NCBI GenBank assembly: GCA_023144005.1
Contig: JAGLGN010000032.1
Coordinates: 5,606 to 69,605, forward strand
Length of the DNA stretch: 64,000 bases
Direction: 5' to 3'
From: a bacterium
GTDB lineage: Bacteria > AUK180
In this document: positions 7,869-63,454 of the stretch, piece by piece
How the letters are laid out: the number at the start of each line of letters is the position of its first letter
Position numbering within the stretch: the first letter of the stretch is position 1
Notes under the pieces: generated by a model
Seen by the model: only the letters and a program-made list of their open reading frames with translations
What the model was told of the DNA's origin: nothing
Databases searched by the model: none
Position numbers and translations under genes: made by a program

Positions 7869-7870
7869 AA

Positions 7871-10450: not shown

Positions 10451-10452
10451 AA

Positions 10453-41500: not shown

Positions 41501-41614
41501 TCAAGAGACGATTCAATTACCAATCATAAGGCACTCGGATTTGCGGGAAGCCTCAAAAAGCCATTCAAACTCGAGGAGATGGCGGAGCTCGTTTTCCAAA
41601 TTATCAATTCATAG
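38597..41614 (+). CDS. Multi-PAS hybrid sensor histidine kinase with C-terminal receiver domain
   Basis: 1005 aa. At least four PAS/PAC modules, HisKA H-box (IAHDFKNILTVISGN), HATPase_c (DNGPGIPE...GLGLS), and a REC domain with conserved Asp (DLYIMDLIIAG). Confidence 0.85.
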   Translation: MKKDEQNIGKSFLIDDLPSPYMLIKNEKVSSMNEIAHSLTGYASTTEPVPLSEIFEEADLAILLNKINSIEPKDFRRMDAILLTKGKKRIHVELFLSRPHKEKAILCCLNPVEKRYDFQNKLFERERQFASLLKNLPGIAYRCKIDEYWTMEFLSEGCYEVTGYTPEQLIENNELAYADLISEEDKEYVSRTVLSSVEKREMFTLVYRIKTAKDEIKWVWEKGQSFENEKGEKRLEGFISDITDRIKYEKEFQESRTLYEQLVETSPDAIILLHPEGIIKMSNSKTAELFGYADPNAFVGKSIYDYVYPEYKFPLEKCISSTMITNEPAEKELIFKKGNDVIFWGDVRASVIRDNHGNVQMITLIIRDTTERNITDENLRKSREKYKAVLAAVPDLIFLMDNEGTFLDYKAEIGQDLIQKPDYFIHRNVYEVVPKYIADLTLAHIKKAVKTNKMQKYEYMLINANGQREDFESRVVPAGRGECLAIVRNITERKRAERELISEKERLDITLSSIGDGVISTDTKGNITLINKVAEKVLKVRKTDVMGHPITKYFKLLRSRDKKPLSPPPFKAVLVDKKAIDYTENILLSFTDAEPIQIGFSLSPVKATDGTLIGSVLAFRDITDILQMQNEMVKSQRLESLGVLAGGIAHDFKNILTVISGNIQLAEMFYDKKEQTLEILREAYDASDKAVELTQQFLTFSKGGAPVKKAASLFELLEESITFTSRGSSITPKIKAVDGLWNAEVDSGQISQVVNNLVLNAIQAMGDNGKLTVSASNVKFKKGEHHTLPAGNYIKIDFEDNGPGIPEKTLAKIWDPYFTTKDAGNGLGLSSCYSIISKHEGHISVTSKVGKGTTFTILLPALGKSGKIKSMRSAEELKRGSGRILLMDDEEGIRDLTKRMLAGLGYFVTAVSDGDNLLKEYNKSVKQKKPFDLYIMDLIIAGGMGGKQTMKKLLVKDPKAKVIVVSAFSRDDSITNHKALGFAGSLKKPFKLEEMAELVFQIINS

Positions 41615-44523: not shown

Positions 44524-46347
44524 TCAATTCTCCTCCATTTTCAACATATTCAAGAGCTTCAGCTGCAAATTGGATTTTGCCGTCTCGCCATGTTCCGAAT
44601 ATATCTCCGCAAGCAAAGCTCTGAGTTCTATTTCCAAATACACAAAACGGTCCTGTTGTGAAATTGCCGCTGCATCCTCAACAAATCTGATCGCAGTATG
44701 AAGGTCTTTTTTCCTGTAAAGCTGGCCCATAAGGTGATAGTATTCTATCAGGCATCGTGGATCTTTCAGAGTTTTTGGATCCACCTGATCTAATTTTTTC
44801 TCCATCTTCTCCATATTGCCTTCCTGAAGGTCGATCGTAGCAAGCGCCAATATGATCTCAGAGGTAGGATCAAACTGTTTCTTAAGATCAGAAATAATAG
44901 GTCTTGCCTTTCTCAATTTTCCCCAACGGATAAAATTCTTCGCCCTTTCCAGATTTACCAGATATATCCCTCTTTTTATCTCTAAATTGCGAGATGTTCT
45001 CAAATTCATAAGGAAGTTCTGCTCGGCAGCCTCATAGCGCCCCATCACGCTGAGAAGTTTTCCTTTGCCGCCGTGAGATATGGACAAGCCATAGGAATCG
45101 TCCAGATCATGTTTCAGGTCAAGAGAAAGATCATAATATTTCAAGGCCTTATTAAAACCGCCAAGATCGAATTGTATCCTGGCTTGAACATCATACATCT
45201 TGGCTAAGTTCAGAGAGATCTCCTCATAGAGCTGGTAATTCTCATCCAGAAGCTCAAAGTACTTTAAGCCGATGGAGTAATTCTTATCATGCACCAGCAT
45301 CAATGTGCCTGACAATTCCTTGTATATCTCTTCACAATAGGCCATCTCAACCAATGCCGCCTCTTTCTTATTCAGCTTCCAATAGCTCATCGCCAGATGC
45401 CTCAATGCGCGGGCGTGCTCCAGAGGAGATATATGCCGATTCGACAGGATCATCTCCGAAATATTGATCACCTCATCAAATTCCTTCTTATAATAGTGGT
45501 AGAGCGCGTTTTCATTCAAGAATTTATCATTGATGGCGATCCCGTACTCGCTGGATAACTGCTCCAGTTTCCGTATCGTCAAAAGGGACTGGTCTAATTG
45601 CTTCATCTTATTGTGGATCTCGAGCATTTTCAATTCAATTGAATACTTTCTTTCGGGGTCTTTAAATTTTTTCTCCGCTCTTTTAAATAGCTTAACCGCC
45701 TCTCCCCAGGCATTGGTCTCGAATCCCCTGCTGAAATTCATCCCTTTTAAGAACTCTATTTCACCTTCTTTAAATAGAATTACGAAGGCATCAACAAGCT
45801 TAGGGTCGTACAATGTGCCTTTATGGGCGATCAGCTCTCTAACGGCATCTGAATCGCGCTTTCTGCGGCGATAGACCCTATTTGTGGTCATCGCGTCATA
45901 GGAATCACAAATGCCGATTATTCTCGATACTAAGGGAATATTTTCTCCGGTCAGACCGCCCGGATAACCGCTGCCGTCCCATCTCTCATGATGATGCTTG
46001 ACAATGATATTGACTTCCTGTAGAAGGGGGTGTTTTGAAAGGATGTGCTGCGCATAGATAACATGTTTTTCCATTTCTAATGTCTCTTCTCTGCTTAAAA
46101 TCCCTTTTTTCTTCAATACATGCTCCGAGATCTTTGCCTTACCGACATCGTGAAGCTGAGAAGCAAGATATACGGTGGATATTTCATTTTTAGAAAGGCC
46201 GATGTACTCGGCTACTTTAACCGCATAGAGTCTTACGCGGTCTGAATGTCCGGAGGTATATTTATCTTTCGCGTCAATGGATTCTGTCAGATATTTGACC
46301 GCTAGAACGAAAAGGTCCTGAACATTGAAGTTTAAAATATTCCCCAT
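44524..46347 (-). CDS. HD-GYP domain c-di-GMP phosphodiesterase with C-terminal TPR-like repeats
   Basis: 607 aa. N-terminal HD motif HDVGK and the HHERWDGSGYPGGL HD-GYP signature, followed by long TPR-like helical repeats. Confidence 0.8.
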   Translation of the reverse strand: MGNILNFNVQDLFVLAVKYLTESIDAKDKYTSGHSDRVRLYAVKVAEYIGLSKNEISTVYLASQLHDVGKAKISEHVLKKKGILSREETLEMEKHVIYAQHILSKHPLLQEVNIIVKHHHERWDGSGYPGGLTGENIPLVSRIIGICDSYDAMTTNRVYRRRKRDSDAVRELIAHKGTLYDPKLVDAFVILFKEGEIEFLKGMNFSRGFETNAWGEAVKLFKRAEKKFKDPERKYSIELKMLEIHNKMKQLDQSLLTIRKLEQLSSEYGIAINDKFLNENALYHYYKKEFDEVINISEMILSNRHISPLEHARALRHLAMSYWKLNKKEAALVEMAYCEEIYKELSGTLMLVHDKNYSIGLKYFELLDENYQLYEEISLNLAKMYDVQARIQFDLGGFNKALKYYDLSLDLKHDLDDSYGLSISHGGKGKLLSVMGRYEAAEQNFLMNLRTSRNLEIKRGIYLVNLERAKNFIRWGKLRKARPIISDLKKQFDPTSEIILALATIDLQEGNMEKMEKKLDQVDPKTLKDPRCLIEYYHLMGQLYRKKDLHTAIRFVEDAAAISQQDRFVYLEIELRALLAEIYSEHGETAKSNLQLKLLNMLKMEEN

Positions 46348-46475: not shown

Positions 46476-46991
46476 TTAGTATTCTATTATAGTGAATATC
46501 TCCAGATTGTCAAGTTTTTTCCGGGCTTCCAGGAATTTTAATTCCACTAAGAACAAAGCCCCGACCACACTTGCACCATTTTTTTCGATCATTTTCTTCA
46601 CAGCACCTACGGTTCCGCCTGTAGCAAGAAGATCGTCTATGATCAAGAATCGATCACCTTTATTTATGGCATCTTTGTGCATCTCCAATGTGTCTTCCCC
46701 GTATTCAAGGGAATAACTCTCAGAAATGGTCTCAGCGGGGAGCTTCCCTTTCTTTCTCACGGGAATAAAGGGTTTGTCCAAAAGATACGACAGTGCGCCG
46801 CCAAAGATAAATCCCCTGGATTCGATCGAAGCCAATTTATCATACTCAACATTTGCCAGAACATCTTTCATGGCATCAATTGCCTTTTTAAAACCCGCAG
46901 GATCCTTCAGCAGAGTAGTGATATCTTTGAATACTATACCCTTTTTCGGGAAATCCGGAACATCTCTGATCAAAGATGATAATTCTTCCAT
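46476..46991 (-). CDS. apt: Adenine phosphoribosyltransferase, possible independent translation product from the internal start
   Basis: 171 aa starting MEELSSLIRDVPDFPKKGIVF with its own strong SD. Canonical APRT PRPP-binding motif. Confidence 0.6.
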   Translation of the reverse strand: MEELSSLIRDVPDFPKKGIVFKDITTLLKDPAGFKKAIDAMKDVLANVEYDKLASIESRGFIFGGALSYLLDKPFIPVRKKGKLPAETISESYSLEYGEDTLEMHKDAINKGDRFLIIDDLLATGGTVGAVKKMIEKNGASVVGALFLVELKFLEARKKLDNLEIFTIIEY

Positions 46992-47819
46992 ATGCCTCTC
47001 CTTTTCAATATTTAAATTGCTTTGTATTATTCCTACACCCTTATTGATGATCTGTCTAACCCTTTCTTTCGAAAGGCTCATAATGGTCCCAACCTCATCA
47101 AGAGTTCGAAAGGCATGGCCATCCAGCCCAAAACGCAATGAAATGGCCTGCTTAACTTTCGGTTTTAAGGATGAGATCATCTTCGACACATATTCACTCT
47201 TATCCTTTCTGTCCTCTTCTTCGTAAAATGAGGCGCTGTCGCGGGAAAGCGTGAGATAATTAATGAAATCCTCGCTATCATTATCTATCTTGAATGACAT
47301 CGAATATTCATTTTGAACAATATTTAATTGATGCAGAAACTTCTCTTCTTCCATGTCAAATTGCTTTGCGATCTCTTTCGTTGTTGGTTTTCTCTCATGC
47401 TCGTGAAAGAACTCGTCGATATAATTCATAACTTTCACGCGAAAATCAAGAATATATATCGGGATCTTAACTATTCGCGCGTTCTTATCGATGAAATTGA
47501 TTATATACGCCTTGATCCAAAAATATGCGTATGTAGAAAATTTGAAATGCTTCTCAGGTTTAAAATGATCGATGGCTTTGAGCATGCCGGAAACTCCTTC
47601 AGAAAGGATATCCAATTTACTGATCCCCCGCAATCTGAAGTACTTCTTTGCGACCATTATTACAAGTCGTTGATTATGAAGGATGATTTTTTCTCTAAGA
47701 GCATGATCACCTGTCTTCTTGTACTCTACAAAATACTCATACTCTTCTTCGGAAGTGAACGGTTTGTAATCCTTCAATTCACGAAAATATATTTTTAAGA
47801 GCTTATCTTCAATATCCAT
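46476..47819 (-). CDS. Sigma-70-family sigma factor fused in frame to adenine phosphoribosyltransferase (APRT)
   Basis: 447 aa with no internal stop. Residues 1-276 carry sigma regions 2 and 4 (FSTYAYFWIKAYI, ARIVKIP, LSKERVRQII). Residues 277-447 are a complete APRT (LIRDVPDFPKKGIVFKDIT...LIIDDLLATGGT). An AAGGAGAGG RBS lies 5 nt before the internal ATG at 46991. Confidence 0.7.
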   Translation of the reverse strand: MDIEDKLLKIYFRELKDYKPFTSEEEYEYFVEYKKTGDHALREKIILHNQRLVIMVAKKYFRLRGISKLDILSEGVSGMLKAIDHFKPEKHFKFSTYAYFWIKAYIINFIDKNARIVKIPIYILDFRVKVMNYIDEFFHEHERKPTTKEIAKQFDMEEEKFLHQLNIVQNEYSMSFKIDNDSEDFINYLTLSRDSASFYEEEDRKDKSEYVSKMISSLKPKVKQAISLRFGLDGHAFRTLDEVGTIMSLSKERVRQIINKGVGIIQSNLNIEKERHMEELSSLIRDVPDFPKKGIVFKDITTLLKDPAGFKKAIDAMKDVLANVEYDKLASIESRGFIFGGALSYLLDKPFIPVRKKGKLPAETISESYSLEYGEDTLEMHKDAINKGDRFLIIDDLLATGGTVGAVKKMIEKNGASVVGALFLVELKFLEARKKLDNLEIFTIIEY

Positions 47820-47825
47820 ATTTTC

Positions 47826-48566
47826 TCATGGTAAGAACAGTAGAGGGTTCAGCGGAAGCTTCTTTTTTCTCACTTCGAAGTGAAGGATCTCGCCGCTCAC
47901 CTTAGCAACTACCTGTCCGGTAACGATCTTCTCACCCTTTTTCACTTTAACTTCCTCGCAGGGATAGTAGAAGACGTAATATTCGGCATCGACCTGAAAT
48001 CCGACCATTAAGCCAATACCCTTAAGGAAGTCCAAATATGTTACCACCCCGTTATTTACGGCTATGATCTCCTTTGTCCGGGGTTTGATATCTATTCCAT
48101 TATTATTCGTGAAGATCCCTAATTCTTCATTGTATATCCTGCCGAATTTCCGGATCACGCTTTTTCTGTCAACATTATGTAAAGGCCATGACCTCAAGAA
48201 AGAGTCTCCCCCGTTGGAAAGCTTTGCGCCGGGCAAGGGCTTCTCGGCAGTTGAAAATGACCCGGCGCCTGGAATACGCAAGACCTGCCCCACTGATATT
48301 TTCGTGGCATCTTCAATAGAATTGAACTCCGCGATATCCTCTATGGGCACCTTGAAATTCTTACTGATACGGTAGAGGGTCTCCCCTTTTCTCACCTTGT
48401 GAACCGCATAGTTCTTGTCTGGAATCACAATCTTCTCAATTTCCTCTCTGGCTTCTTTTTTTGCCGCCAGAATTGTTGTCTTATTATTTTCAGTGACCAT
48501 TGATCTTCCGATCAGGGAACATGAAGAAAAGACAAGGGGAATAAATAGAAGCGCAGCTAAATTCAC
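47826..48566 (-). CDS. LysM-domain M23-family peptidoglycan peptidase
   Basis: 246 aa. Signal peptide, LysM (YRISKNFKVPIEDIAEFNSI...GQVLRIP), C-terminal M23/LytM-like domain. Confidence 0.8.
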   Translation of the reverse strand: MNLAALLFIPLVFSSCSLIGRSMVTENNKTTILAAKKEAREEIEKIVIPDKNYAVHKVRKGETLYRISKNFKVPIEDIAEFNSIEDATKISVGQVLRIPGAGSFSTAEKPLPGAKLSNGGDSFLRSWPLHNVDRKSVIRKFGRIYNEELGIFTNNNGIDIKPRTKEIIAVNNGVVTYLDFLKGIGLMVGFQVDAEYYVFYYPCEEVKVKKGEKIVTGQVVAKVSGEILHFEVRKKKLPLNPLLFLP

Positions 48567-50985: not shown

Positions 50986-51342
50986 CTACTTCTCCTGAAT
51001 TCTGCTTATCCGATTCTTTTCATCCAAAAAGATCTTTGTCGGAAAATGGCCCTTCATTTCATTTTTATCTAATTGACAGAATGAAAATATGATCACGCTA
51101 TCTCTCTTTTTACCCAATAAAGCTGTGCCTCCATTGAGGATGATCACGCCTTTATCTCCGGGAATGGCATATGTTTCAAAGCGGTTCCCATTACTCACAT
51201 TGACAACCAGGACCTTTTCATATTCGTCAATACCTGCCTTTTCCATCAGGTCTTTATCAATAGTAATACTACCATCATATCCTACCTGTGAATCAGTTAC
51301 AACTCCCATATGAAGTTTGGAATACAGATATGTCTTTTTCAT
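50986..51342 (-). CDS. panD: Aspartate 1-decarboxylase
   Basis: 118 aa. LHMGVVTDSQVGYDGSITIDKDLMEKAGI with the Gly-Ser self-processing site context. Confidence 0.85.
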   Translation of the reverse strand: MKKTYLYSKLHMGVVTDSQVGYDGSITIDKDLMEKAGIDEYEKVLVVNVSNGNRFETYAIPGDKGVIILNGGTALLGKKRDSVIIFSFCQLDKNEMKGHFPTKIFLDEKNRISRIQEK

Positions 51343-52778
51343 TTAGCCACCTTTGCTAATTTATAATTATAGGTCTCTCTCCTTACCGGAGAAAATATCG
51401 AAATGATATAGATCCCATCCGGATATTTACTGAGGTCAACATCCCATTTGTTCGTTTCAAAATCAGATCGGTTGATGAAACGGCTGCCCGCTATCGTGAA
51501 TATCCGCACCGTATCGTTCGAATAAAGCCCCGAGATCGAGAAGATGCCCGTGCAGGGATTTGGAGATATTTCAAAACCCTCCGAAGAATTCTTATAAAAT
51601 AGTATCTCGTCCCATAAGAGATCAGAAGAGGTCAATGATTCCAAATACGCGGGATCATTTATATAATTGATCGTTATGCCGGTTGACGGGACCTCTTTAT
51701 AAGAAGAGGTCAGGTGCTCTCCTAAAGATGTTGATACAAATATCTCATATTGTAAAAGAGCATCAGAAGCAGAGGTATTAACCATCAGCGAAAAAGAAGC
51801 GGTATCCTCTGAGATAGCTCCAAGAACATTTCCCATATCTGAATTTCCTCGATTGTTCCATAGTTCGTATTCATGCAAAACATCCATAAGCCGGTCCTTA
51901 TTCAGGCGATCGGTATCGTTGAGGGGTAACTCCATGTCTGACAGGAGCGCTGAGCAAAAAAGATTAAATGAGCTAACGATAGCTGGATAGGCGGACATAC
52001 GAAGCAGTGACATTGAGTTCCACTCAACAGAAGCGGCATTGTCCTCATAATGCCGATAGAATTCCCGGCAGAAGGATAATCCCAATTCCTCGGGGGATAT
52101 CACTCCATCTTCATCAAATACTGCATTTATTACGGGAGAATAATTCCATCCATAGGATGAGAGATAATCCTCATTCGCGGCAATAAAACCGGCATATCCG
52201 TTTACTTCAGATGCAAGGGTCATGGTAGAACTGATACAGGCGTCGATACCCAGAAGCGATAAGATAATGCCCGAGTCAGATAATGCCTGCCTCATTTCCC
52301 CGCCGGCGATAGATAGAGAATCCGAGTTCGTTTCATCAATACTGAGATCCGATCCCGAAAAACGGTACCAGGAATTTCCATGATCCCAGAGGATCAAGGC
52401 GTAATTGTCTGCGGGAAATGATGATACTGACCATTTGATGAAATCGCTTAATACCGCAGGCGAACCCATGTTTACTTCTCCGAGAGAAAGAATCGCGTTT
52501 TCAGGAGAAGGGGTCATATCGGTGGTCATGTAAAACCTTCTGGCATCCGACCAATCGCCGTATGCGTTGTCATATCCGGGGTGTCTGTCAAATTGACAAA
52601 CGATATTCACATTGGGTGAAGTTCCGATCGCGGAGGAAATCTCCATAAAATCCGTTATAGCGTATTCCTCAAGATTATTATCCCCGTTCAAATAGATCAT
52701 GACCGTCCAATTATCGGAAAAAGCATTCATGGCAAAAGCCATTAAAAGTACAAGCAGAAAAAGACCGGCTCGGATCAC
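51339..52778 (-). CDS. Secreted clostripain-like (C11) cysteine peptidase with T9SS-like C-terminal domain
   Basis: 479 aa. Signal peptide. WTVMIYLNGDNNLE and ALILWDHGNSW C11 motifs. C-terminal beta-rich domain ending IYIISIFSPVRRETYNYKLAKVAK. Confidence 0.65.
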   Translation of the reverse strand: MIRAGLFLLVLLMAFAMNAFSDNWTVMIYLNGDNNLEEYAITDFMEISSAIGTSPNVNIVCQFDRHPGYDNAYGDWSDARRFYMTTDMTPSPENAILSLGEVNMGSPAVLSDFIKWSVSSFPADNYALILWDHGNSWYRFSGSDLSIDETNSDSLSIAGGEMRQALSDSGIILSLLGIDACISSTMTLASEVNGYAGFIAANEDYLSSYGWNYSPVINAVFDEDGVISPEELGLSFCREFYRHYEDNAASVEWNSMSLLRMSAYPAIVSSFNLFCSALLSDMELPLNDTDRLNKDRLMDVLHEYELWNNRGNSDMGNVLGAISEDTASFSLMVNTSASDALLQYEIFVSTSLGEHLTSSYKEVPSTGITINYINDPAYLESLTSSDLLWDEILFYKNSSEGFEISPNPCTGIFSISGLYSNDTVRIFTIAGSRFINRSDFETNKWDVDLSKYPDGIYIISIFSPVRRETYNYKLAKVAK

Positions 52779-54682
52779 TTTTGGACCTTAACCACCGTAG
52801 GTTCATACCCGAATTCCATCATCATATCAGAAAATGGTGCTGCTTCGCTGGCCGAAGAATACGGGCCGGAATAGAGGATATAATTACTGCCGCTTTTTGA
52901 AATATAGAGTTTCTCAACGCCATAACTCTCCATCTCATCTTTCATATCATCAACAGTTGCCCTTGTCCCGGAAACGATCTTTATCTTGTATTCATAAACC
53001 ACTTTCTTGGCGGCAGCAGCACGACGGGCCTCATCTTCCTTGCGTTTTTTCTCCGCTGCGGCAGCGCGCCTTCTGTCATCGGCCGCTTTTTTATCTCTTG
53101 CCGCCTTGGCATCAGCGGCTTTCCTTCTGTCCAATTCCGCCTGAGCGTCAGTAGCTTTCTGTCTGTCCAGTTCCGCCTGAGCATCTAATTCTGCCTGTCT
53201 GTCCAGCTCCGCCTGAGCATCTAATTCTTTTTGCGTGTCCAGCTCCGTCTTAGCATCTAATTCTGTCTGTTCATCAAGCTCCGCCTGAGCATCTAATTCT
53301 GTCTGCCTTTCGAGTTCAGCCTGCCTTTCAGCTTCCGCTTTCTTTAGGGCTTTCTTATCTACTTTCGGCTTAGCTTCTTTCTTGATCTTCGGTGTTGAGG
53401 GGCCCGCAGGAAATCCGCCCTTCATAATAAGATATACGTTCGTGGCAAGCAGGATCACAATAAGGCCCATGAAGATATTTCTGAAGAGAATGCTTTGAAA
53501 ATAGAACTTTCTGGCCCCTTCCTTGATATCCTCGAAATCCTCTCCGGCATAAGTATCATTGTATATTCTTGAATGCAGGTATTTCTTTACCTTCTTGTCT
53601 CTCAGTCCCTTTTCCAGTTTTTTCCTTTCCTCGTCCAGGATCTCACTAAAACCAGAGTATTCCTTTCTCACTTTTTCGAGTTGGCCCATATCCTTATCAA
53701 GATCTTTTTTTAGATTGACGATCTCGCCTTTTTCCTTGGCAATATCAATCTTGATCGTTTTTACTTCTTCCAGCATTTCCTGGTACTTGGAATAGAAGTT
53801 CTTCATCCCGTCGAGAAATTTATCGTATGTACCTTCAAGTGGTTTCAACTTCTTATTGTATCCGTCGATAACGCCCAAACGCTTCTGAATCTCTGATTTT
53901 ACCGCATTGAAGTTCTGAACGATCTTCGTAATGCCGTTTTTCAATTCCTCTAATTTATCTTTCAATAATCGGTTCTGCTTCCCCAACTTCTCTATTTCAG
54001 GAGAGATCACATCCTTTTCCAAATACGAAGGCTCTACGCCGGTATTTTGCTGTACCTGGGATGGCTGATAAGTCTGCTGTTGTGCCGGAGCCGGAGTCTG
54101 CTGCATCATTTGAGCTGTTTTATCCACAGTGGTCGGCTCTTCCGAATCAAAACCCAATATGGCATCGATATCATCATCATTGAATCCGGCATTGGCAGCG
54201 GGCGGTGGTTCCTCTATATGCGATATTACTTCTGTCTTCATCGATTCTGCCGCAGAATTTGACGGATAATATTTCTTCAGGGCTTCGCTCAATGAGTGTT
54301 CTGATGTCACCAGAGGGTCAACCTTCAATCCTGTCATTGACTCTATCTTCGCCTTCAGGCTTTCATCAAGAGGGTCGATCATAACTATTGACAGGTTCGA
54401 TGCAAATTTATCCACTGGAAGTACTTTATTGGCAAGGCAGAAATCTTGCGGCATTATTTGAAGGACATTATCCGGGACATGGAAATTATTCAGATCAATG
54501 GTAGAAACTCCGAATTTATCGGTAAGGAATTTAAGAAGGATATCTTCTGTGATATATCCTAACTCCACCAGTATAGAGCCAACCTTCTTGCCGGATTGTT
54601 TCTGCACCTTCAATGCCTGCAAAAGCTCTTCCTTTTTTATGATGTTATTAATAACCAGCAGTTCGCCTAATTTCAATGCCAT
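52775..54682 (-). CDS. MshEN (c-di-GMP-binding) - TM - ELDxQx repeat - SPOR domain protein
   Basis: 635 aa. N-terminus has two tandem MshEN motifs (KLGELLVINNIIKKEELLQALKVQ, KVGSILVELGYITEDILLKFLTDKF). Then one TM helix, about 8 ELDxQx tandem repeats and a K/R/A-rich segment. C-terminal SPOR-like domain (YKIKIVSGTRATVDDM...YILYSGPYSSASEA). Confidence 0.6.
   Translation of the reverse strand: MALKLGELLVINNIIKKEELLQALKVQKQSGKKVGSILVELGYITEDILLKFLTDKFGVSTIDLNNFHVPDNVLQIMPQDFCLANKVLPVDKFASNLSIVMIDPLDESLKAKIESMTGLKVDPLVTSEHSLSEALKKYYPSNSAAESMKTEVISHIEEPPPAANAGFNDDDIDAILGFDSEEPTTVDKTAQMMQQTPAPAQQQTYQPSQVQQNTGVEPSYLEKDVISPEIEKLGKQNRLLKDKLEELKNGITKIVQNFNAVKSEIQKRLGVIDGYNKKLKPLEGTYDKFLDGMKNFYSKYQEMLEEVKTIKIDIAKEKGEIVNLKKDLDKDMGQLEKVRKEYSGFSEILDEERKKLEKGLRDKKVKKYLHSRIYNDTYAGEDFEDIKEGARKFYFQSILFRNIFMGLIVILLATNVYLIMKGGFPAGPSTPKIKKEAKPKVDKKALKKAEAERQAELERQTELDAQAELDEQTELDAKTELDTQKELDAQAELDRQAELDAQAELDRQKATDAQAELDRRKAADAKAARDKKAADDRRRAAAAEKKRKEDEARRAAAAKKVVYEYKIKIVSGTRATVDDMKDEMESYGVEKLYISKSGSNYILYSGPYSSASEAAPFSDMMMEFGYEPTVVKVQK
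53120..53340. repeat. Tandem 18/36-nt coding repeats (ELDxQx units) inside the MshEN-SPOR gene
   Basis: Repeated ...ctccgcctgagcatctaattctg... units are visible directly in the sequence. Confidence 0.7.
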
Positions 54683-54691
54683 AATTTACCT

Positions 54692-55621
54692 CTAATTAAA
54701 ATCCAGATTTCTCTTATCAAAAATGTCCTTAACATATAGTACAAATTCTTCGCGGCCTAATTTGACCTTCTCGATAATATCTCCGTAGTAACTGCTCAAA
54801 TGATGATGTTTCAAAGATCTTTTGAGCTCCTCCTCCGCAAGTTTATGGGAGGGGTCCACGATATGGAGAAGGGCAATATAATAAAGGGAATATGATATCG
54901 ATTCAAATATTCCATAGACATGAGAGACTTTTCTAAGGGTACTCTTGTACAATTTATCATGTTCCTGTTTCAGACTCAAAGAGCTTTCATAATACTTCAG
55001 CGCATTATCAAGATCGTTTTTCTCAAAGAAAATATCCCCCAACTTGATAACGATGGTCCGGGAGATATTCTCTTCAGCGAATTTTTCATAAAATCGTATT
55101 TCTTCGTCAGAAAATGATGCGAATTCCTCCTTCTTCAGATTCTTGATCCGGGAATTCACATAATTGTTGTACTGCTCTTCAGAAAGCGTTTCCTTCAGGC
55201 ATTCATGCGAGTTGAGAACATTTAGAAATGCGTAAAAATTATTGAAGTCGGAACGGTAAAAATAATCGAGATACTTCTCCAATATATTAGGGTCGTCCAT
55301 TGGAACAACCTTCAGTACACTGTCCAGAAGAGCAAATATCTCTTCAGTGCCGGGGCGGGAGATATACTTAAGGAAGTATGTGTAGAATGATTTATTGTCA
55401 ACTCCCTGTGGAAGGGAATTATTGTCTTTGATGTAATTCAGGACAATATTGAATATCCCCGTATCCTCCATATAATATGATTGGGAAACTATGAATTTAC
55501 TTGTGTCATATTTGTTCTTTCTGCTCAATACCACGATAGTGATTATGATAAAGAGAGTAAGGACGATGACAATTATCAGAGTTTCTATATTAATTCTTCC
55601 CTGAGAGAAATTCCTCAACAA
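54692..55621 (-). CDS. Hypothetical membrane-anchored helical-repeat protein
   Basis: 309 aa. One N-terminal TM. Tyr/Phe-rich helical (TPR-like) body. No family recognised. Confidence 0.4.
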   Translation of the reverse strand: MLRNFSQGRINIETLIIVIVLTLFIIITIVVLSRKNKYDTSKFIVSQSYYMEDTGIFNIVLNYIKDNNSLPQGVDNKSFYTYFLKYISRPGTEEIFALLDSVLKVVPMDDPNILEKYLDYFYRSDFNNFYAFLNVLNSHECLKETLSEEQYNNYVNSRIKNLKKEEFASFSDEEIRFYEKFAEENISRTIVIKLGDIFFEKNDLDNALKYYESSLSLKQEHDKLYKSTLRKVSHVYGIFESISYSLYYIALLHIVDPSHKLAEEELKRSLKHHHLSSYYGDIIEKVKLGREEFVLYVKDIFDKRNLDFN

Positions 55622-56954
55622 AATGGGTGTTATAATTACCCTGCAAAAAGGCGGGAGTGTTGACCAATTCCTTCAAAAAGGAAATATTCGTATTTATCCC
55701 GTCAATATAAAATTCATCCAGAGCGCGGTTTAATCTGTTGATGGCTAAATATCTGGTCTCTCCGTATACGATCAATTTGGCTATCATTGAATCATAATGC
55801 GGCGGTATCTCATATCCAGCATGCACAAATGTATCGATTCTTATTCCAAATCCTCCAGGGAGATTGAGCTTTTTGATCTTTCCTGGACTAGGCATAAAGC
55901 CCTGGGAAGGATTCTCGGCATTGATCCTCACTTCGATCGCGTGGCCGCGGAGATTGATATCCTTCTGCTTAATTTTCAGTTTTTCTCCGTCAGCGATACG
56001 GATCTGCTTAGCGATCAGGTCCATCTCGCTCCTCATTTCTGAAACAGTATGTTCAACCTGAATGCGTGTATTCATCTCCATAAAATAGAAATTCAAGTCC
56101 TTGTCAACGATAAACTCCATGGTACCGGCACTGTTGTATTTCACTTCTCTGGCACCCTTGATGGCCATCTCCAGAATCGCTTTTCTCTTCTCGTCATCAA
56201 GGATAGGAGAAGGAGATTCTTCCACGATCTTCTGGTGGCGGCGCTGCATAGAACAGTCCCTTTCGCCAATATGAACGATATTACCGTAATTATCTCCAAG
56301 AAGCTGGACCTCAATATGATGAGGGTTCTCTATATATTTCTCAACATATACGGATGCGTCATTAAAGGCATTTTGCGATTCACTCTTTGCCATCTCGAAA
56401 TTGTTTTTCAGTTCCCCGTCATTGCGCACAATGCGCATGCCTTTCCCGCCGCCGCCTGAAGAGGCCTTTATTATTATGGGATATCTTATCTTCTTAACGA
56501 TCTTCTTCAAGTCCTCAAAAGAGTCAATATTTCCCTTAGAGCCGGGGACCACAGGGACACCGGCACTGGTCATTGTCTTTCTTGCTTCCGACTTATTTCC
56601 CATCAAACCGATTATGGAAGAGGAGGGGCCGATAAAGATGATATTACTCTCTTCACAGATCTTGGCAAATTCCGCATTTTCGGCAAGAAATCCATAGCCC
56701 GGATGGATCGCATTGGCACCGCTTATCTCCGCGGCGGTAATAATGGAAGGGATCTTCAAGTAACTGCTCTTTGAAGCAGGAGGGCCTATGCATATCGCTT
56801 CATTGGAAAATGCGACATGCGGAGAATTCTTATCTGCCGTAGAGAATACGGCAACTGTCGGGATCTTAAGGTCTTTACAGCTCCTTATCACCCTTAAAGC
56901 GATCTCGCCTCTATTGGCTATCAGAACCTTTTTGATCTTTGCCATTCTACTCAA
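55590..56954 (-). CDS. accC: Acetyl-CoA carboxylase biotin carboxylase subunit
   Basis: 454 aa. KVLIANRGEIALRVIR N-terminus and ATP-grasp motifs. Confidence 0.9.
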   Translation of the reverse strand: MSRMAKIKKVLIANRGEIALRVIRSCKDLKIPTVAVFSTADKNSPHVAFSNEAICIGPPASKSSYLKIPSIITAAEISGANAIHPGYGFLAENAEFAKICEESNIIFIGPSSSIIGLMGNKSEARKTMTSAGVPVVPGSKGNIDSFEDLKKIVKKIRYPIIIKASSGGGGKGMRIVRNDGELKNNFEMAKSESQNAFNDASVYVEKYIENPHHIEVQLLGDNYGNIVHIGERDCSMQRRHQKIVEESPSPILDDEKRKAILEMAIKGAREVKYNSAGTMEFIVDKDLNFYFMEMNTRIQVEHTVSEMRSEMDLIAKQIRIADGEKLKIKQKDINLRGHAIEVRINAENPSQGFMPSPGKIKKLNLPGGFGIRIDTFVHAGYEIPPHYDSMIAKLIVYGETRYLAINRLNRALDEFYIDGINTNISFLKELVNTPAFLQGNYNTHFVEEFLSGKN

Positions 56955-58692
56955 AACCCTCGATCTTCATCATATTGTATTCCTGAAGCAGATGCGCGAA
57001 TTCACCCCAAAGTATTCTACTTTTAATAAGCTTCTTAATAATATTCTGAAGCTTGGCGTATGTGTGTGTCTCTTCAAGGTTCTTGAAACCGACTTCAATA
57101 AGTTTGTTGATCTCAACAAAGAAAAGGTATTGGATCACATTGGACATTCCCGGAGGCGAATCCCTGTTCTTGTCAATATGAAGATTGATCACATCGATCT
57201 TGGGTATTTTCTCACTCGGGATGCTCTTTGCCTTAGCGATCTCCCTCAACTGCTGCATCATTTCCTGTGTATCTCCCCAATCCTTGGTGAGTATCATACC
57301 AACATCAAGATCATATTCAATATCTCCGGAACCGGTGGTATTATGCATTGTAGGGCGCTCATAACTTTCTTTTTCATCAAGCTTACACCCTTCCCTGTCC
57401 AAGGAAGAGATCGCCCAGATCGGACAGTTCAAGGAAAGTGAGAGTTCAGAAAGGCCCGAAGATATCCTATTGATCCTGGTCTGAGGATCGGTGATATGAG
57501 ATTCCAGAGGCATCTTCTGAAGATAATCTATGAAGATCGCTATCTCATCTGTCTCAAATTCATGGAGGACATTGTAGGCATGAGATTCTATCCTTTCAAA
57601 ATTCTCTCTCTGACCGCCTTCGATCAGGAAAATATAGTTCATGAAAGCTTCTGTTGAATGCCATCCCTTTATGAATTTATTCTTGATAAGTTTATCTTCC
57701 ATGATATTCTTGGTCTGGAGCACGGTGGGATTCACCAAACTCTCTTTGGATAGAATTCTCAAAGTAAGAACGCGCTGCGTCTGTTCCCAGGAATAGTAAA
57801 GAACGGGGATCTTGTTTTGTGCAGCGACATGAGAGGCTATGGCAAGAGAGAAATTGGTCTTGCCCCTTCTGGGCGCGCCCAATAAACCGTAATAGAATCC
57901 CTTTCTCAAGCCGGAAAGTACCTTATTGAGTGTATTGAAGGGTTTTATGGAGTAACCCATCACTCCGTCCAGCAATTCTTCTTTTCTCGTTCTGATCTCA
58001 CTCTCCAATTCGTACAGATTGTATTTCATGGGCATGATAACTTCATGGAATTGCATCTTCTGCAGAGAGATCAGCTGATGCCCCAGTTTACCGGCAAAAT
58101 CAGCGACATCGATCTTATTTGATGATGTGGAGAGAAGATATTCCTCTATTTTTTCGCGAACTTCTTTCAGCTTATCCTTACCAGCCCTCATCTTCATGAT
58201 CTCAATATAAGTCATTACCTGCGAAAGCTGCGGTGGATCCACATTCCTTAATTTGGTGTAGAATTTCTGCATCTCAATGGTATAATAGTTACGAGGGATC
58301 AGTTCGTTCTTTATGGATTCATAATCAATGACCGAATCCTCTCTTTTACTGTCAAAGAACTCAAAGATGACATTACAGACTATTCTCGACAGTTTCGATC
58401 TCAGCAGAAACGGCTTGAAACCCTTTTCGATGGCGGTGGAGATCAGGAACCTATCCTGCAGGAAACCGGCGAGGATCTTTATTTCCTCTTCTTCATAGCT
58501 CTCCGTTTCCTCCGGGGATAAATATTCCTCTTCTTCCTCTATGATCGGCCTCTGCTCCTCTTTCTTTAAAACAGGAGCTTCTTCCTTCTTCTCTTCCTTT
58601 GCTTCACCCTTCTTAAGGGGATTATCCTTAATGAATTCCGCAAATAGATCTTCCGGATTGACCTTCTTCTTGTTATCTTTCTTCTCTTCCAT
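56947..58692 (-). CDS. Divergent DnaB-family helicase-like ATPase with an acidic/Lys-rich N-terminal extension
   Basis: 581 aa. Low-complexity N-terminus of about 90 aa. DnaB-N-like helical region. RecA-fold with H1 GAPRRGKTNFSLAIA, H2 IFIDYLQKM, H4 SSLDREG...GSGDIEYDLDVGMIL. Confidence 0.55.
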   Translation of the reverse strand: MEEKKDNKKKVNPEDLFAEFIKDNPLKKGEAKEEKKEEAPVLKKEEQRPIIEEEEEYLSPEETESYEEEEIKILAGFLQDRFLISTAIEKGFKPFLLRSKLSRIVCNVIFEFFDSKREDSVIDYESIKNELIPRNYYTIEMQKFYTKLRNVDPPQLSQVMTYIEIMKMRAGKDKLKEVREKIEEYLLSTSSNKIDVADFAGKLGHQLISLQKMQFHEVIMPMKYNLYELESEIRTRKEELLDGVMGYSIKPFNTLNKVLSGLRKGFYYGLLGAPRRGKTNFSLAIASHVAAQNKIPVLYYSWEQTQRVLTLRILSKESLVNPTVLQTKNIMEDKLIKNKFIKGWHSTEAFMNYIFLIEGGQRENFERIESHAYNVLHEFETDEIAIFIDYLQKMPLESHITDPQTRINRISSGLSELSLSLNCPIWAISSLDREGCKLDEKESYERPTMHNTTGSGDIEYDLDVGMILTKDWGDTQEMMQQLREIAKAKSIPSEKIPKIDVINLHIDKNRDSPPGMSNVIQYLFFVEINKLIEVGFKNLEETHTYAKLQNIIKKLIKSRILWGEFAHLLQEYNMMKIEGFE

Positions 58693-58707: not shown

Positions 58708-59139
58708 CTACTCGATCTCAAAAATAGGCTGGTCGTATTCCAGACTTTCGCCGCTCTCGACCAGAACCTTAACGATCTTCCCGCTCATTTCGGCTTTGAT
58801 CTCATTGAAGATCTTCATCGCCTCGATTATACAAACAACGGTGTCGTCATTGATGGTATCCCCCACCTTCACATAATCAGGTGATTCCGGAGAAGGGGTA
58901 CTGTAAAAAGTGCCCGGCATCTTTGCTTTAATAAAACGGGCATTTGAAACCGGTGCTTCAACGACTTGGGGAGTCGGCCCTGACTGGATCAATACCTCGG
59001 CCGGTTTTGACAGTACCTCGCCGTGGGTTATCAGATCACGCTTCAGGCTGAATTTAACACCTTCCTGTTCAATGGTAAGTTCACTGATGTCCGAATCTTT
59101 TAGCATCTGAATGATCTTTTCAATATCATCTATCTTCAT
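58708..59139 (-). CDS. accB: Biotin carboxyl carrier protein
   Basis: 143 aa. Biotinyl-lysine motif CIIEAMKIFNEI. Confidence 0.85.
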   Translation of the reverse strand: MKIDDIEKIIQMLKDSDISELTIEQEGVKFSLKRDLITHGEVLSKPAEVLIQSGPTPQVVEAPVSNARFIKAKMPGTFYSTPSPESPDYVKVGDTINDDTVVCIIEAMKIFNEIKAEMSGKIVKVLVESGESLEYDQPIFEIE

Positions 59140-59715: not shown

Positions 59716-60807
59716 CTAAATTATGGTCAGTTCTTTTGTTATCCCGGAGGACAATGCGACAGCACCGCCATCCGTGATCAAAAGATCGTCTTCAATTCGA
59801 ACGCCGAATTCATTTGGCAAATAGATCCCTGGTTCGTCAGTGAACACCATTCCCGGCTTAAGCCGCCCTCTTGCCGCGCGAGGCGAAAGCCAGGGTTGTT
59901 CATGAACCTCAAGCCCCAGGCCATGACCAAGGCTATGCGTAAAATATTTTCCGTATCCGGCTGATACGATCTCTTTTCTGGCGATCTCATCAACTTTCTT
60001 AAAGGATACATCCTTTTTGACTTTCTCTATAACGCTCTGATTAGCCCTTAGGACTGTGAGGTAAACCTCCTTCATCTTCTGAGTCGGTTGGCCCAGAAAA
60101 AAGGTACGGGTGATATCAGCATTGTAATGTTCATAAACAGCGCCGAAATCCAGAAGGATGATCTCTTTTTCCCTGCATTTAACATCACGGCTCGGTACAC
60201 CGTGAGGCAAAGAAGCTCTGGGGCCGAAAAGGCTAATTATCTCAAAGCCGGAACGCTCACCGCCCGCAGACTTGATCTGATATTCAAGTTCTGCTTCAAG
60301 ATCCTTTTCGGAAATGCCCGGCTTCACAGATTTTATTGTTTCATAGAACGCCTTTTCTGCGATTTCAACCGCTCTCGTTATCTTTGCTATTTCTTCATTG
60401 TCCTTGATCACCCTCAAAGGTGAAAGTAGGCCGGGAACCGGTTTCATCTTGATCTTTGAAAAGACCTTCCTCAGATTTCTGTAGCCGCTGTATGTGATCC
60501 GGTCGGGATCGAATATCACATTTTTCGGAGAAAGCTTTGACATTCTTTCCGCAATATCAGAGAATGCGGCCGCATAAGTTGAAGCAAGGATGACCTTGGC
60601 CTCTTGAATGCCCTTTTTGGCATCCTCAATATAGCGGGAATCGATATGAAGCTCGGCGTGATCAGGAAAAACAGCTAAAATGCCGTCTCCATCTTCACTG
60701 GAACGGAATCCCGTTAAATAAGTCCGGGAAACATTGTCCCTGAAAATAAATAACGAGTCCGGATAAAGCTTCCGGAGTTTGTCCAGGCGTCTCCTATAGT
60801 ATACCAT
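59716..60807 (-). CDS. pepP: Xaa-Pro aminopeptidase (M24B)
   Basis: 363 aa. HSLGHGLGLEVHE metal-binding motif. Confidence 0.85.
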   Translation of the reverse strand: MVYYRRRLDKLRKLYPDSLFIFRDNVSRTYLTGFRSSEDGDGILAVFPDHAELHIDSRYIEDAKKGIQEAKVILASTYAAAFSDIAERMSKLSPKNVIFDPDRITYSGYRNLRKVFSKIKMKPVPGLLSPLRVIKDNEEIAKITRAVEIAEKAFYETIKSVKPGISEKDLEAELEYQIKSAGGERSGFEIISLFGPRASLPHGVPSRDVKCREKEIILLDFGAVYEHYNADITRTFFLGQPTQKMKEVYLTVLRANQSVIEKVKKDVSFKKVDEIARKEIVSAGYGKYFTHSLGHGLGLEVHEQPWLSPRAARGRLKPGMVFTDEPGIYLPNEFGVRIEDDLLITDGGAVALSSGITKELTII

Positions 60808-63454
60808 TGGTTTTTACTTTTTCCGAAAGGAACCTCATTATAGGAATAATGCTGGGTGAATGGATAAATGCCTCGCCTGCGAGGACAAGATATCCATATG
60901 TATCCTTGATGAAAAATGTTTTAATCCCACCAAGCGTAGCAGTGCCTTCCTGAACATCTTCGGCTGAAAGCAGAGAAGCCATCTCATTCTTTTTCTGCTG
61001 GATCTCCGCGAAAAGTGCGGCAAATTTATTGATATCAATATCGGAATCTCCTGTATCTGAAGAAATGATCAAACCGTCTTCGCTGACGATAAATACCATA
61101 TTCACTCCCTCAAAACCTTTGAGCTTAGACATGAGATCTTCGATAGATTCCAACTTTCCTCCAACTCTATTGGCCAGATACATAGGAATGGCAGAGACAG
61201 CCGTCTGCGGGCTGGATATAACAGCAGCGGGCTCTTCAACTGATTCCTCTTGCTGTATCTCGTCTACTATTTCTTCCTCGGCCTCAACTTCAAGCGATTC
61301 TTCCTCGACATCGTCCTCAGAAACCTCTTCTTCCACTTCCTCTTCTTCCACTTCCTCTTCTTCCACTTCCTCTTCTTCTTCTTCTTCTTCTTCTTCAGAA
61401 GAGTCGTCATATGATTCCTCTGCTTCTTCTTCCGCTTCTTCCTCTGGTTCTTCTGTCATCGTATCCTCAAGAAGCTCACCGGGTTTCTGATCGGGAGAAT
61501 ATATTACGGTTTCTTCAGATTCGCCGCCTTCAAAATCATCATCTTCATCAGATTCAGATGCCGCGAAGATCGAATCCAAGGCCTCATCAACCTCCTCTTC
61601 ATCATCTTCGTCCACCGTATCTTCATCTTCGGTTTCCTCAAGGTCTTCGTCCTGGGTATCTTCGATTATATCGCCCTCGGGAGAAAGCTCCTCTTCCAGA
61701 GTAACTTCATCATCATCAGAGGCGGCGAACACATTTTCCTCGTCCTCATCATCCTCGGAAACTTCCGCTTCCTCAGAAAGCTCAAGTTCTTCTTCGTCAC
61801 CGTCTTCTTCAGCAGCAATTTCTTCGGAGGGCTCTTCTGTGGCCTCCTCGTCATCAGTTTCATCTTCGTCTGTGACTTTGTCAAAGAGATCCTCATCGTC
61901 GGCATCCTCATCCTCGGATTCTTCGCTTGCGAAGATATCTTCCTCTGCTACTTCTTCTTCTGTTACTTCTTCTTCTTCAACTACTTCTTCATCCTCTTCC
62001 GGTTCTTCTTCTACTGATTCTTCGTCTGCCGTTTCTTCCTCTATTTCTAACTCTTCGTCTACTTCTTCATCCTCTGTTTCTTCTTTCGGTTCTTCTACTT
62101 CCGATTCTTCTTCCGCCGGTTCTTCCACATCCGCTTCTATTTCTTCATCTGATCCGAATATATCCTCTAAAGCGTCATCTTCTTCAGAAACTTCATCCTC
62201 TTCTGAAAAGAGATCTTCCGCTTCAACACTCTCTTCTTCAGAGGATCCGTCAGCTTCGTCTTCTCCAAAAAGAGCGTCTACATTCTCTTCCGCTTCTTCT
62301 TCCACTTCTGTATCGGAGGGCTCTTCGTCCTCTATAATATCTTCAATATCTCCTGCTGACACTTCTGCTGAATCTTCATCCGCTCCAAAAATATCCTCGA
62401 TATCATCTTCTTCGCTATCCTTTGACTCTTCAGCCGTATCGGGAGAAGCAAAAATATCATCTTCCGCGTCTTCACTTGAACCTTCACCGAAGATATCATC
62501 GAATGCTTCGTCAGAAGAGGGGGCTTCGGGAGTGGATGAGAAGACATCCTTTTTTGAATCATCCGAACTTTCGGGATCTGCTCCAAAGATATCATCAAAT
62601 GCGTCGTCGCCTTTACCGGCCGCGTCCTTATCGCCGCTATCGGTTTCAGTATCGTCCTGATCTGTAACATCATCACTGGCTTCTTCTTCGAAAATATCGC
62701 CGAAGTCACCTTCCTCGGATGCGGCCTGCTCTTCCTTTGGGGCTTCATCAGAACCAAAGATATCGTCAAAACCGCCATCGGCATCCGCAGCTTCTTCCGG
62801 TTCATCACCTTCATCAAAGAGGTCAGCGAATTTATCCTCTACATCATCACCCTCGGCTTCGTCTCCCTCATCCTCAGGTGATTCAAGGTGCTGCAGCATA
62901 TCTTTCGCCTCTTCGTTATCAGCGTCATTGCTCAATATTTTCTCCAGGATCTCCTTTGCCTTATCTTCTTTACCCTTCTCCTCGTACAATCGGGCATTGG
63001 CAACGGTGTAGATCTCGGCATCTGAGGATTCTTCGGGTTCATCGCCCTTTTCAGAAACCTTTGCGCGGAGTTCCTTCAATTCCTCTTCAACCAGCTCATC
63101 ATCCGGATTCTCTTCATAAATAACCTCAAGATGCTTCAAGGCATCTGAAAGGTTGCCCATCTCTTTATAGACACGGGCGATCTGTTGATTCGCCATGTAA
63201 TGGGTGGGTTTATTCTCAAGGATCTTCAGGAATACCTCTTCCGCGTCTTCCAATTGGGCAGCTTCTATCAGCACCTTTCCCTTGACAAGCATTGTCTTAA
63301 GATCACCGGGAAATTCTTCCAGGCATTCATCGGCATACTTAACAGCATTTTCATAATCTTCGCCTTGTCTGTAGTTTTCAATAAGCTTTGAGTAATTTCT
63401 CGGAGAGGGGTCTCCCCTTACAAGGTCGAGCAGATTTTGGAGTTCTTCGTTCAT
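60794..63454 (-). CDS. TPR - poly-Asp/Glu low-complexity (about 600 aa) - Roadblock/LC7-like C-terminal domain protein
   Basis: 886 aa. N-terminal roughly 140 aa TPR-like. Very long D/E-rich tract. C-terminal roughly 120 aa with a Roadblock-like pattern (GVNMVFIVSEDGLIISS...GYLVLAGEAF). Confidence 0.55.
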   Translation of the reverse strand: MNEELQNLLDLVRGDPSPRNYSKLIENYRQGEDYENAVKYADECLEEFPGDLKTMLVKGKVLIEAAQLEDAEEVFLKILENKPTHYMANQQIARVYKEMGNLSDALKHLEVIYEENPDDELVEEELKELRAKVSEKGDEPEESSDAEIYTVANARLYEEKGKEDKAKEILEKILSNDADNEEAKDMLQHLESPEDEGDEAEGDDVEDKFADLFDEGDEPEEAADADGGFDDIFGSDEAPKEEQAASEEGDFGDIFEEEASDDVTDQDDTETDSGDKDAAGKGDDAFDDIFGADPESSDDSKKDVFSSTPEAPSSDEAFDDIFGEGSSEDAEDDIFASPDTAEESKDSEEDDIEDIFGADEDSAEVSAGDIEDIIEDEEPSDTEVEEEAEENVDALFGEDEADGSSEEESVEAEDLFSEEDEVSEEDDALEDIFGSDEEIEADVEEPAEEESEVEEPKEETEDEEVDEELEIEEETADEESVEEEPEEDEEVVEEEEVTEEEVAEEDIFASEESEDEDADDEDLFDKVTDEDETDDEEATEEPSEEIAAEEDGDEEELELSEEAEVSEDDEDEENVFAASDDDEVTLEEELSPEGDIIEDTQDEDLEETEDEDTVDEDDEEEVDEALDSIFAASESDEDDDFEGGESEETVIYSPDQKPGELLEDTMTEEPEEEAEEEAEESYDDSSEEEEEEEEEEVEEEEVEEEEVEEEVSEDDVEEESLEVEAEEEIVDEIQQEESVEEPAAVISSPQTAVSAIPMYLANRVGGKLESIEDLMSKLKGFEGVNMVFIVSEDGLIISSDTGDSDIDINKFAALFAEIQQKKNEMASLLSAEDVQEGTATLGGIKTFFIKDTYGYLVLAGEAFIHSPSIIPIMRFLSEKVKTNGIL

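Follow-up and report, generated by a model that had tools for sequence, protein, structure and literature searches.

An MshEN module and a SPOR-fold domain combined in a predicted bitopic membrane protein of a few uncultured bacteria

What could a protein do that begins with the c-di-GMP-binding type of module known from pilus and secretion ATPases and ends in a domain with a predicted SPOR fold? This question is raised by a gene in a 64,000-nt stretch of bacterial DNA (GenBank assembly GCA_023144005.1, contig JAGLGN010000032.1, positions 5,606 to 69,605), hereafter called the window. The gene, referred to here as the MshEN-SPOR gene (52775..54682, minus strand), is an ATG-initiated open reading frame (ORF) of 635 aa in which an MshEN module, a coiled coil, a transmembrane (TM) helix, a spacer and a SPOR-fold domain follow one another, as expected of a bitopic protein. 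A GAGGT Shine-Dalgarno sequence precedes the ATG, which lies 9 nt past the stop codon of the preceding gene, and the start is confirmed by the orthologues, because all of them begin with MA[LI][KR]LGELL. Cyclic di-GMP (c-di-GMP) acts on pili, secretion, exopolysaccharide synthesis and transcription; to our knowledge, few direct protein receptors for it belong to the machinery of the cell wall or of division. We favour the reading of this protein as a peptidoglycan-tethered, c-di-GMP-responsive scaffold of the inner membrane, and give it about an even chance of being correct.

The N-terminal part of the protein belongs to the MshEN domain family on the scores of two hidden Markov models (HMMs). 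Pfam PF05157 matched aa 57-141 with 59 bits (gathering score 23.1), and NCBIfam NF053729, which describes the 53-residue c-di-GMP motif domain, matched aa 4-54 with 57.2 bits (cut-off 38); both scores greatly exceed what chance would give. The module consists of MshEN_N (aa 4-56; 54515..54673, minus strand), which holds two 24-residue c-di-GMP motifs, and MshEN_C or T2SSE_N1 (aa 57-141; 54260..54514, minus strand), which aligns with the N-domains of PilB, PilF and MshE in the PDB. In a phmmer search of the PDB, aa 4-139 were aligned with residues 9-145 of Vibrio cholerae MshE (5htl; E = 9.8e-16), and stronger matches were obtained with Thermus thermophilus PilF (6f8l; E = 9.5e-33) and with the PilB proteins of Geobacter and Myxococcus. 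MshEN is defined as a 53-residue unit of two 24-residue motifs separated by a 5-residue spacer (PMC5013675), and a motif scan of the window protein found K4-Q27 and K33-K56 with exactly five residues (aa 28-32) between them. The initial annotation, made from the sequence alone, was therefore right to place both motifs at the N terminus, and right also in stating that they are not joined to an ATPase: neither a PF00437 match nor a Walker A motif was found after the module, and the PilB equivalog model gave 73 bits against a cut-off of 675.65. Lacking the ATPase that defines the MshE/PilB/GspE traffic ATPases, the protein does not belong to that family.

The ligand contact positions were compared over nine family sequences, in the numbering of V. 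cholerae MshE (offset -5). Nine of the 14 positions (L10, G11, L25, L29, Q32, G40, G47, L54 and L58) are canonical and invariant in all nine sequences. At R9 and R38 the family has K or R, at L39 it has V or I, and G18 is N in the window protein and in the orthologue P0002, as it also is in Geobacter PilB, and G in the other members. The alignment that had been proposed as a check on the conserved Leu, Gly and Arg residues thus bears out nine of the positions, with departures at G18, L39 and Q61 (for the last, see below). The Lys at motif position 1 is shared with the high-affinity domain GSPII-B of PilF (LKLGELLL...; PDB 8pdk), whose dissociation constant for c-di-GMP is 6 nM and whose binding is 25-fold weaker after the exchange K167R; the consensus has since been widened to (R/K/L)LGxx[LVI][LVI]xxG[LVI][LVI]xxxxLxxxLxxQ (PMC11731258). 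Because this Lys-type domain binds so tightly, Lys at the first position is no defect and is even favourable. MshEN_N is the best-conserved segment of the protein, with 59-79% identity to distant orthologues (coiled coil, 42-52%; SPOR, 34-44%; the two linkers, 7-39%), which indicates selection on the ligand site. Judged from these residues, the module probably binds c-di-GMP.

The MshEN module is followed by a variable cytoplasmic linker (aa 142-222; 54017..54259, minus strand), delimited by orthologue alignment, which is acidic and Q/P-rich and shows 20-38% identity to distant orthologues around a conserved DDIDxILGF patch. Those of its residues that were included in the structure model (aa 211-223) had a predicted local distance difference test (pLDDT) score below 50. 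The next segment (aa 223-392; 53507..54016, minus strand) is specific to the family. In its AlphaFold2 (AF2) model, two long helices (55 and 76 residues) are succeeded by short ones that lead into the TM segment (pLDDT 80.6, pTM 0.30). Foldseek found no structural match of this model in the PDB, and Pfam and NCBIfam scans of the segment returned coiled-coil noise only. The motifs VISPEIE, KKLKPxEGxYD, GMKxFYxKY and ETYxGED are conserved in it. From the model and the alignment, the segment is probably a cytoplasmic coiled-coil stalk that serves as a dimerisation element. The protein had been described as single-pass, in agreement with its hydropathy: aa ~396-421 (53420..53497, minus strand) form the sole stretch with Kyte-Doolittle 19-residue windows above 1.6, and this helix is conserved in the orthologues P0002 and P0003.

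Between the TM helix and the C-terminal domain lies a low-complexity spacer (aa 422-558; 53009..53419, minus strand; 7-39% identity to orthologues) that is K-rich at first, then composed of ELDxQx hexapeptides and finally K/A/R-rich. The hexapeptide array was found as first described, with a somewhat different count: instead of about eight units there are nine consecutive EL[DE]x[QKE]x hexapeptides at aa 456-509, flanked on both sides by degenerate copies. In the DNA, Tandem Repeats Finder detected a repeat with a period of 36 nt (two hexapeptides) in 5.5 copies with 80% matches (53126..53323, minus strand). The composition of the spacer is free, because orthologues substitute an EAEKK-type sequence (P0002) or a TonB-like PEPKP sequence (L004, P0003 and P0173); the length is always kept long, at about 95-135 residues. 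The expectation that spacer length would vary among strains was supported within one 90%-identity cluster, in which P0171 (623 aa) differs from the near-identical P0167 (635 aa), both taken from short-read metagenome assemblies, by the exact deletion of TELDEQTELDAQ. These 12 aa equal one 36-nt unit, and the difference supports length change by whole units. By analogy to the linkers of FtsN, DamX and TonB, the spacer may act as a ruler that lets the SPOR domain reach the peptidoglycan layer.

The C-terminal domain (aa 559-635; 52778..53008, minus strand) is predicted to have the SPOR fold. Its AF2 model (pLDDT 89.6) shows the beta-alpha-beta-beta-alpha-beta topology and superposes on solved SPOR domains. 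When the 77 aa were scanned in isolation, they reached 21.5 bits for Pfam SPOR (threshold 21), with coverage of profile positions 13-75 only. SPOR was the only family matched by all three orthologues tested, with a best E-value of 7.6e-5. By sequence score, membership of the domain in Pfam SPOR is marginal.

On the reading that we favour, the protein would lie in the inner membrane in bitopic form, its N terminus cytoplasmic and its C terminus periplasmic. The cytoplasmic MshEN module would bind one c-di-GMP through its two tandem 24-residue motifs and would ride on the long coiled-coil stalk, probably dimerising, that leads into the single TM helix. On the other side of the membrane, a spacer of ~135 residues (an acidic-basic helix or, in some members, a polyproline-like PEPKP sequence, and extended in every case) would carry the SPOR-fold domain to the peptidoglycan. 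This domain would most likely bind glycan strands, namely the amidase-processed 'denuded' ones at septa or new poles, provided that it acts as other SPOR domains do. The SPOR end would then set the location of the protein, and c-di-GMP on MshEN would alter the cytoplasmic conformation or the binding of a partner through T2SSE_N1 and the stalk.

Several observations weigh against this reading. In the ligand site, Q61 (the last Gln of motif II) is replaced by Lys in all nine family sequences. The non-binding PilF domain GSPII-A has H and R at its two terminal-Gln positions, with the Arg at the Gln61 equivalent, and a perfect consensus put into GSPII-A failed to restore binding in the context of the full domain (PMC12002112). 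The invariant Lys and the insufficiency of the consensus mean that tight binding of c-di-GMP, as asserted in the initial annotation, is not established. The TM helix is flanked by equally basic residues on both sides, and the positive-inside rule therefore does not decide the topology. At the C terminus, a scan of the whole protein gave 15.9 bits for SPOR (PF05036), which is below the threshold of 21. Alcorlo et al. described a single highly conserved glycan-contacting side chain in SPOR domains, the Gln of beta1 (RlpA Q270, FtsN Q251, HMM position 8), with Phe preferred four residues later at position 12 (PMC6895207). In every member of the present family, beta1 has the form Y-x-[IV]-K-[IV]-x-[SA]-[GSA]; it contains no Gln, and the Phe four residues past that position is likewise missing. 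Neither Pfam nor hhalign aligns beta1 itself with SPOR, both alignments beginning after it: the family SPOR profile was aligned by hhalign with the FtsN SPOR domain from alpha1 to alpha2 only, which leaves the beta1 register unfixed (the numbering of the FtsN sequence used agrees with the published Q251, S254, W283, R285 and I313). The C-terminal SPOR assignment thus holds for the fold and fails for the hallmark Gln, and with this glycan-contacting residue missing from beta1 in every member, the targeting of denuded septal glycan that had been proposed is not established either. Finally, synteny was rejected as functional evidence. About 15 kb are collinear in all relatives (M24 peptidase, EF-P, BCCP, a DnaB-like protein, AccC, the upstream neighbour TPR309, MshEN-SPOR, the downstream C11 peptidase, PanD, PTA and onward), and adjacency within such a block reflects shared ancestry and is no evidence of shared function.

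A rather unlikely alternative is that the MshEN module is a ligand-independent dock. T2SSE_N1 would dock on a platform protein of a pilus or secretion system, or would compete with PilB, and the protein would be a peptidoglycan-anchored scaffold in which c-di-GMP has no part. The N1 domain of GspE, which binds GspL, provides a model for such docking. The nearest solved relatives of the N-terminal module are in fact the N-domains of PilB and PilF, and the invariant Lys at the Gln61 position parallels the Arg in GSPII-A. MshEN-type domains that fail to bind the ligand do exist, in XpsE (PMC5013675) and in GSPII-A of PilF (PMC12002112), and peptidoglycan-anchored accessory proteins of pili and secretion systems are known from the FimV/HubP type (PMC12918733). 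However, apart from G18 and L39, the hydrophobic and glycine contacts are all invariant in the family, and MshEN_N is more conserved than MshEN_C, which would not be expected if N1 docking alone mattered. The NCBIfam model that passed its cut-off is specific for the c-di-GMP motif. The non-binder XpsE carries drastic changes at contact positions (G11V, L29R, G40L and others) (PMC5013675), and substitutions of this type were not seen in the family. Pilus and type II secretion system (T2SS) genes were absent from the 64-kb window.

We consider it unlikely that the protein is a c-di-GMP receptor whose SPOR fold binds some other envelope ligand or a protein, and which regulates, for example, the export or activity of the co-transcribed C11 protease or acts together with TPR309. 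The missing Gln and Phe and the off-consensus beta1 speak for this possibility, as does the tight packing with both neighbours, which is kept in relatives. The downstream gene (51339..52778, minus strand) encodes a clostripain-like C11 peptidase with a C-terminal sorting domain of the type IX secretion system (T9SS), identified with Pfam (Peptidase_C11, 118 bits; Por_Secre_tail, 30.9 bits against 27). Its GTG start overlaps the stop codon of the MshEN-SPOR gene (GTGA), and it occupies the same position in L002-L004. Because it carries a T9SS sorting domain, this neighbour implies a diderm envelope with type IX secretion. The upstream gene TPR309 (54692..55621, minus strand), which ends 9 nt before the MshEN-SPOR start, encodes 309 aa in which a hydrophobic helix lies at the N terminus and TPR is matched weakly; it is found at the same position in L002-L006, and its product is a possible partner of the MshEN-SPOR protein. 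However, PanD overlaps the C11 gene, and PanD and PTA follow with equally tight spacing, so that the packing is not specific for function. We also know of no c-di-GMP control of a T9SS.

The residue that replaces the Gln argues against a different ligand as well. In the strand register, the Gln and Phe of canonical SPOR domains are at positions i and i+4 of the exposed face, which here reads E-K-K-V-G. By this register, rather than by residue-level superposition, the invariant Lys K568 most likely occupies the Gln position, from which it could contact the lactyl carboxylate. SPOR sites rest on a basic patch, and the residues that form it differ from one family member to the next (PMC6895207). 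Glycan binding is still plausible, because an invariant Lys probably takes the place of the Gln and because the residues of the basic patch vary.

The MshEN-SPOR family is very rare and is confined to a handful of uncultured species. The window protein is identical in sequence to the database protein P0001, listed at NCBI as 'hypothetical protein KAI78_10680 [bacterium]'. An uninterrupted ORF with all parts in conserved order was found in at least nine independent assemblies, at 45-100% identity. A profile built from three orthologues retrieved three full-length clusters (P0001, P0002 and P0017) among 1.84 billion representative proteins; below these, the score fell from 721 to 209 bits, and the remaining matches spanned MshEN alone. 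The gene is present in five of 185,579 species genomes (L002-L006), and no further members turned up when 241 million metagenome records were scanned for motifs specific to the family. The labels of the source organisms disagree among the family sequences ('bacterium', 'Ca. Calescamantes' and 'Ca. Atribacteria'). One further record, the 94-aa P0165 (MCK5224422.1), is a fragment of the same gene from another assembly that was automatically labelled 'type II secretion system protein GspE, partial'. This label is a mis-annotation caused by the MshEN module, and the full-length copies carry the name 'hypothetical protein'. An artefactual origin of the ORF (by misassembly, by erroneous gene fusion or as the remnant of a decayed PilB/GspE), for which one might cite this GspE label and the origin of every source from a metagenome assembly, is effectively refuted by the intact ORF with its conserved order of parts in the independent assemblies, by a per-domain conservation consistent with selection and by the lack of any ATPase remnant downstream of the gene.

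Compared with known systems, the window protein combines familiar modules in an unfamiliar way and resembles a cross between MshEN effectors (MshE, PilB, NfrB) and bitopic SPOR proteins (FtsN, DamX, DedD). It shares with MshE, PilB and PilF (5htl, 6f8l and 8pdk) the full MshEN module, consisting of MshEN_N with its two motifs and T2SSE_N1, at 30-40% identity, and differs from them in that the ATPase gives way to the coiled coil, TM helix, periplasmic spacer and SPOR-fold domain, and in the exchange of Gln61 for Lys. A non-ATPase MshEN protein of the inner membrane is also represented by E. coli NfrB, a fusion of a family 2 glycosyltransferase and MshEN that acts as an effector coupling c-di-GMP to an envelope process (PMC10118264). 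The NCBIfam NfrB model matches the window protein locally at aa 5-149; in NfrB, however, MshEN is C-terminal and the output domain is an enzyme, whereas the window protein has no enzymatic domain and carries MshEN at its N terminus. A parallel observation concerns non-ATPase MshEN proteins of ~377-390 aa in Geobacter and other Desulfuromonadales (L050-L080; match start near 6001 in each locus). They have MshEN at the N terminus, lack a Walker A motif and share a conserved, apparently soluble C-terminal domain whose last residues are ...LAFEMLIIKNKILMT. These ~380-aa proteins were considered as membrane-anchored cousins and were rejected, since their hydrophobic stretch is located inside the apparently soluble C-terminal domain.

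From the periplasmic side, the arrangement resembles that of the divisome proteins FtsN, DamX and DedD, which have a single TM helix with the N terminus inside, a long low-complexity periplasmic linker and a C-terminal SPOR fold (PMC7642682, PMC6895207). The cytoplasmic part of the window protein, however, comprises ~390 aa (MshEN and coiled coil), whereas theirs is a short peptide or small domain, and the hallmark Gln is absent from the window protein. FtsN itself is marked by a short cytoplasmic peptide that binds FtsA and by an essential helix in the periplasm. No NCBIfam match to an FtsN model was obtained at E-values up to 0.1 (the essential-helix motif was not searched separately), and by any sequence model the protein is not FtsN. 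In the polar landmark proteins FimV and HubP, too, a domain that binds peptidoglycan in the periplasm is joined by one TM helix to a large scaffold in the cytoplasm with acidic low-complexity regions (PMC12918733); they differ in their opposite orientation (N-terminal LysM), in having LysM instead of SPOR and in lacking a nucleotide-binding domain.

The only catalogued pairing of MshEN with a peptidoglycan-related domain is MshEN_N-Peptidase_M23, represented by the NlpD-like AM1_1153 of Acaryochloris and recorded in two cyanobacterial genera (Wang et al. 2016, Suppl. Table 4). It differs from the window protein in having the MshEN_N subdomain only and LytM/M23 instead of SPOR, belongs to another phylum and is uncharacterised. 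SPOR is absent from this 2016 catalogue of MshEN architectures (Wang et al.). No co-mention of 'MshEN' and 'SPOR domain' was found in the searchable literature (InterPro architectures were outside this check), and the titles and abstracts of papers naming both 'SPOR domain' and 'c-di-GMP' describe no such protein. Among 147 other best MshEN matches, none has this C-terminal domain; the TM-bearing proteins among the top matches are NfrB-like glycosyltransferases, ComEC-like proteins or unknowns, none with SPOR. Within these sources, the suspicion voiced in the initial annotation that the pairing had not been described holds up, and the architecture is apparently undescribed and built from known modules.

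The window also contains genes for c-di-GMP turnover. A PAS-GGDEF diguanylate cyclase with a GGEEF motif is encoded at 37392-38309 (plus strand; GGDEF, 146.8 bits), and an HD-GYP (HD_5) phosphodiesterase fused with TPR repeats, with the motif HHERWDGSGYP, at 44524-46347 (minus strand). The organism therefore uses c-di-GMP. Between these two genes lies one (38597-41614) for a hybrid histidine kinase that is rich in PAS domains and carries a receiver domain.

Genes related to the envelope or to division are found in the same region. A candidate lipoprotein (47826-48566, minus strand; signal ...LVFSSC) with LysM and Peptidase_M23 domains lacks the HxxxD and HxH motifs, and because of this it is classed as a degenerate LytM protein of the NlpD/EnvC amidase-activator type; its gene is ~4 kb from the MshEN-SPOR gene. 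FtsK, UppP and an M14 carboxypeptidase are encoded nearby as well. Promoter and terminator scans gave counts near the shuffle expectation, and the sole terminator-like site is inside the C11 gene.

Some other genes of the window are of interest in themselves. The DnaB-like gene of the collinear block (56947-58692, minus strand), between accB/BCCP (58708-59139, minus strand; EAMK biotinylation motif) and AccC (55590-56954, minus strand), encodes a 581-aa protein with DnaB_C as its sole helicase domain, preceded by an acidic N-terminal region. No other gene of the region is as well conserved (~80% identity in L003-L006). An 886-aa protein (60794-63454, minus strand) carries TPR repeats in its N-terminal part and a Roadblock/LC7 domain in its C-terminal part; modules of the latter kind typify regulators of small GTPases, for example MglB. 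At 46476-47819 (minus strand), sigma-70 regions 2, 3 and 4 are joined to a C-terminal phosphoribosyltransferase domain in an unusual fusion of 447 aa that is conserved in L004. A cluster at 1632-11430 (minus strand) encodes Mrp-antiporter-like membrane subunits, a fused NuoC/NuoD-like large subunit of NiFe-hydrogenase and a 4Fe-4S protein, and looks similar to a membrane-bound hydrogenase of the energy-converting type. ETF-alpha, an acyl-CoA dehydrogenase and SMC (12814-16377) are encoded further along.

A bolder form of the favoured reading would make the protein an FtsN/DamX-like divisome or pole-organising factor that is switched by c-di-GMP, and so the first direct receptor of c-di-GMP with a physical tie to the peptidoglycan of septum or pole. 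We regard this as tentative and rather improbable, any role in cell division being pure conjecture. If true, one protein would link the level of a second messenger to cell division or pole identity in one lineage, and the periplasmic spacer would be an evolvable molecular ruler. Even in the more modest form, in which the protein is a peptidoglycan-tethered scaffold, a c-di-GMP receptor with a SPOR fold at its other end would be a simple and testable case of local signalling anchored at a defined site of the envelope. For tests of both halves, in vitro work and E. coli suffice, and the host need not be cultivated. The family also offers a natural variant of the SPOR domain, in which Lys replaces the hallmark Gln, and a natural experiment on periplasmic spacers, in which an acidic-basic helix can be compared with a polyproline-like sequence and length changes unit by unit.

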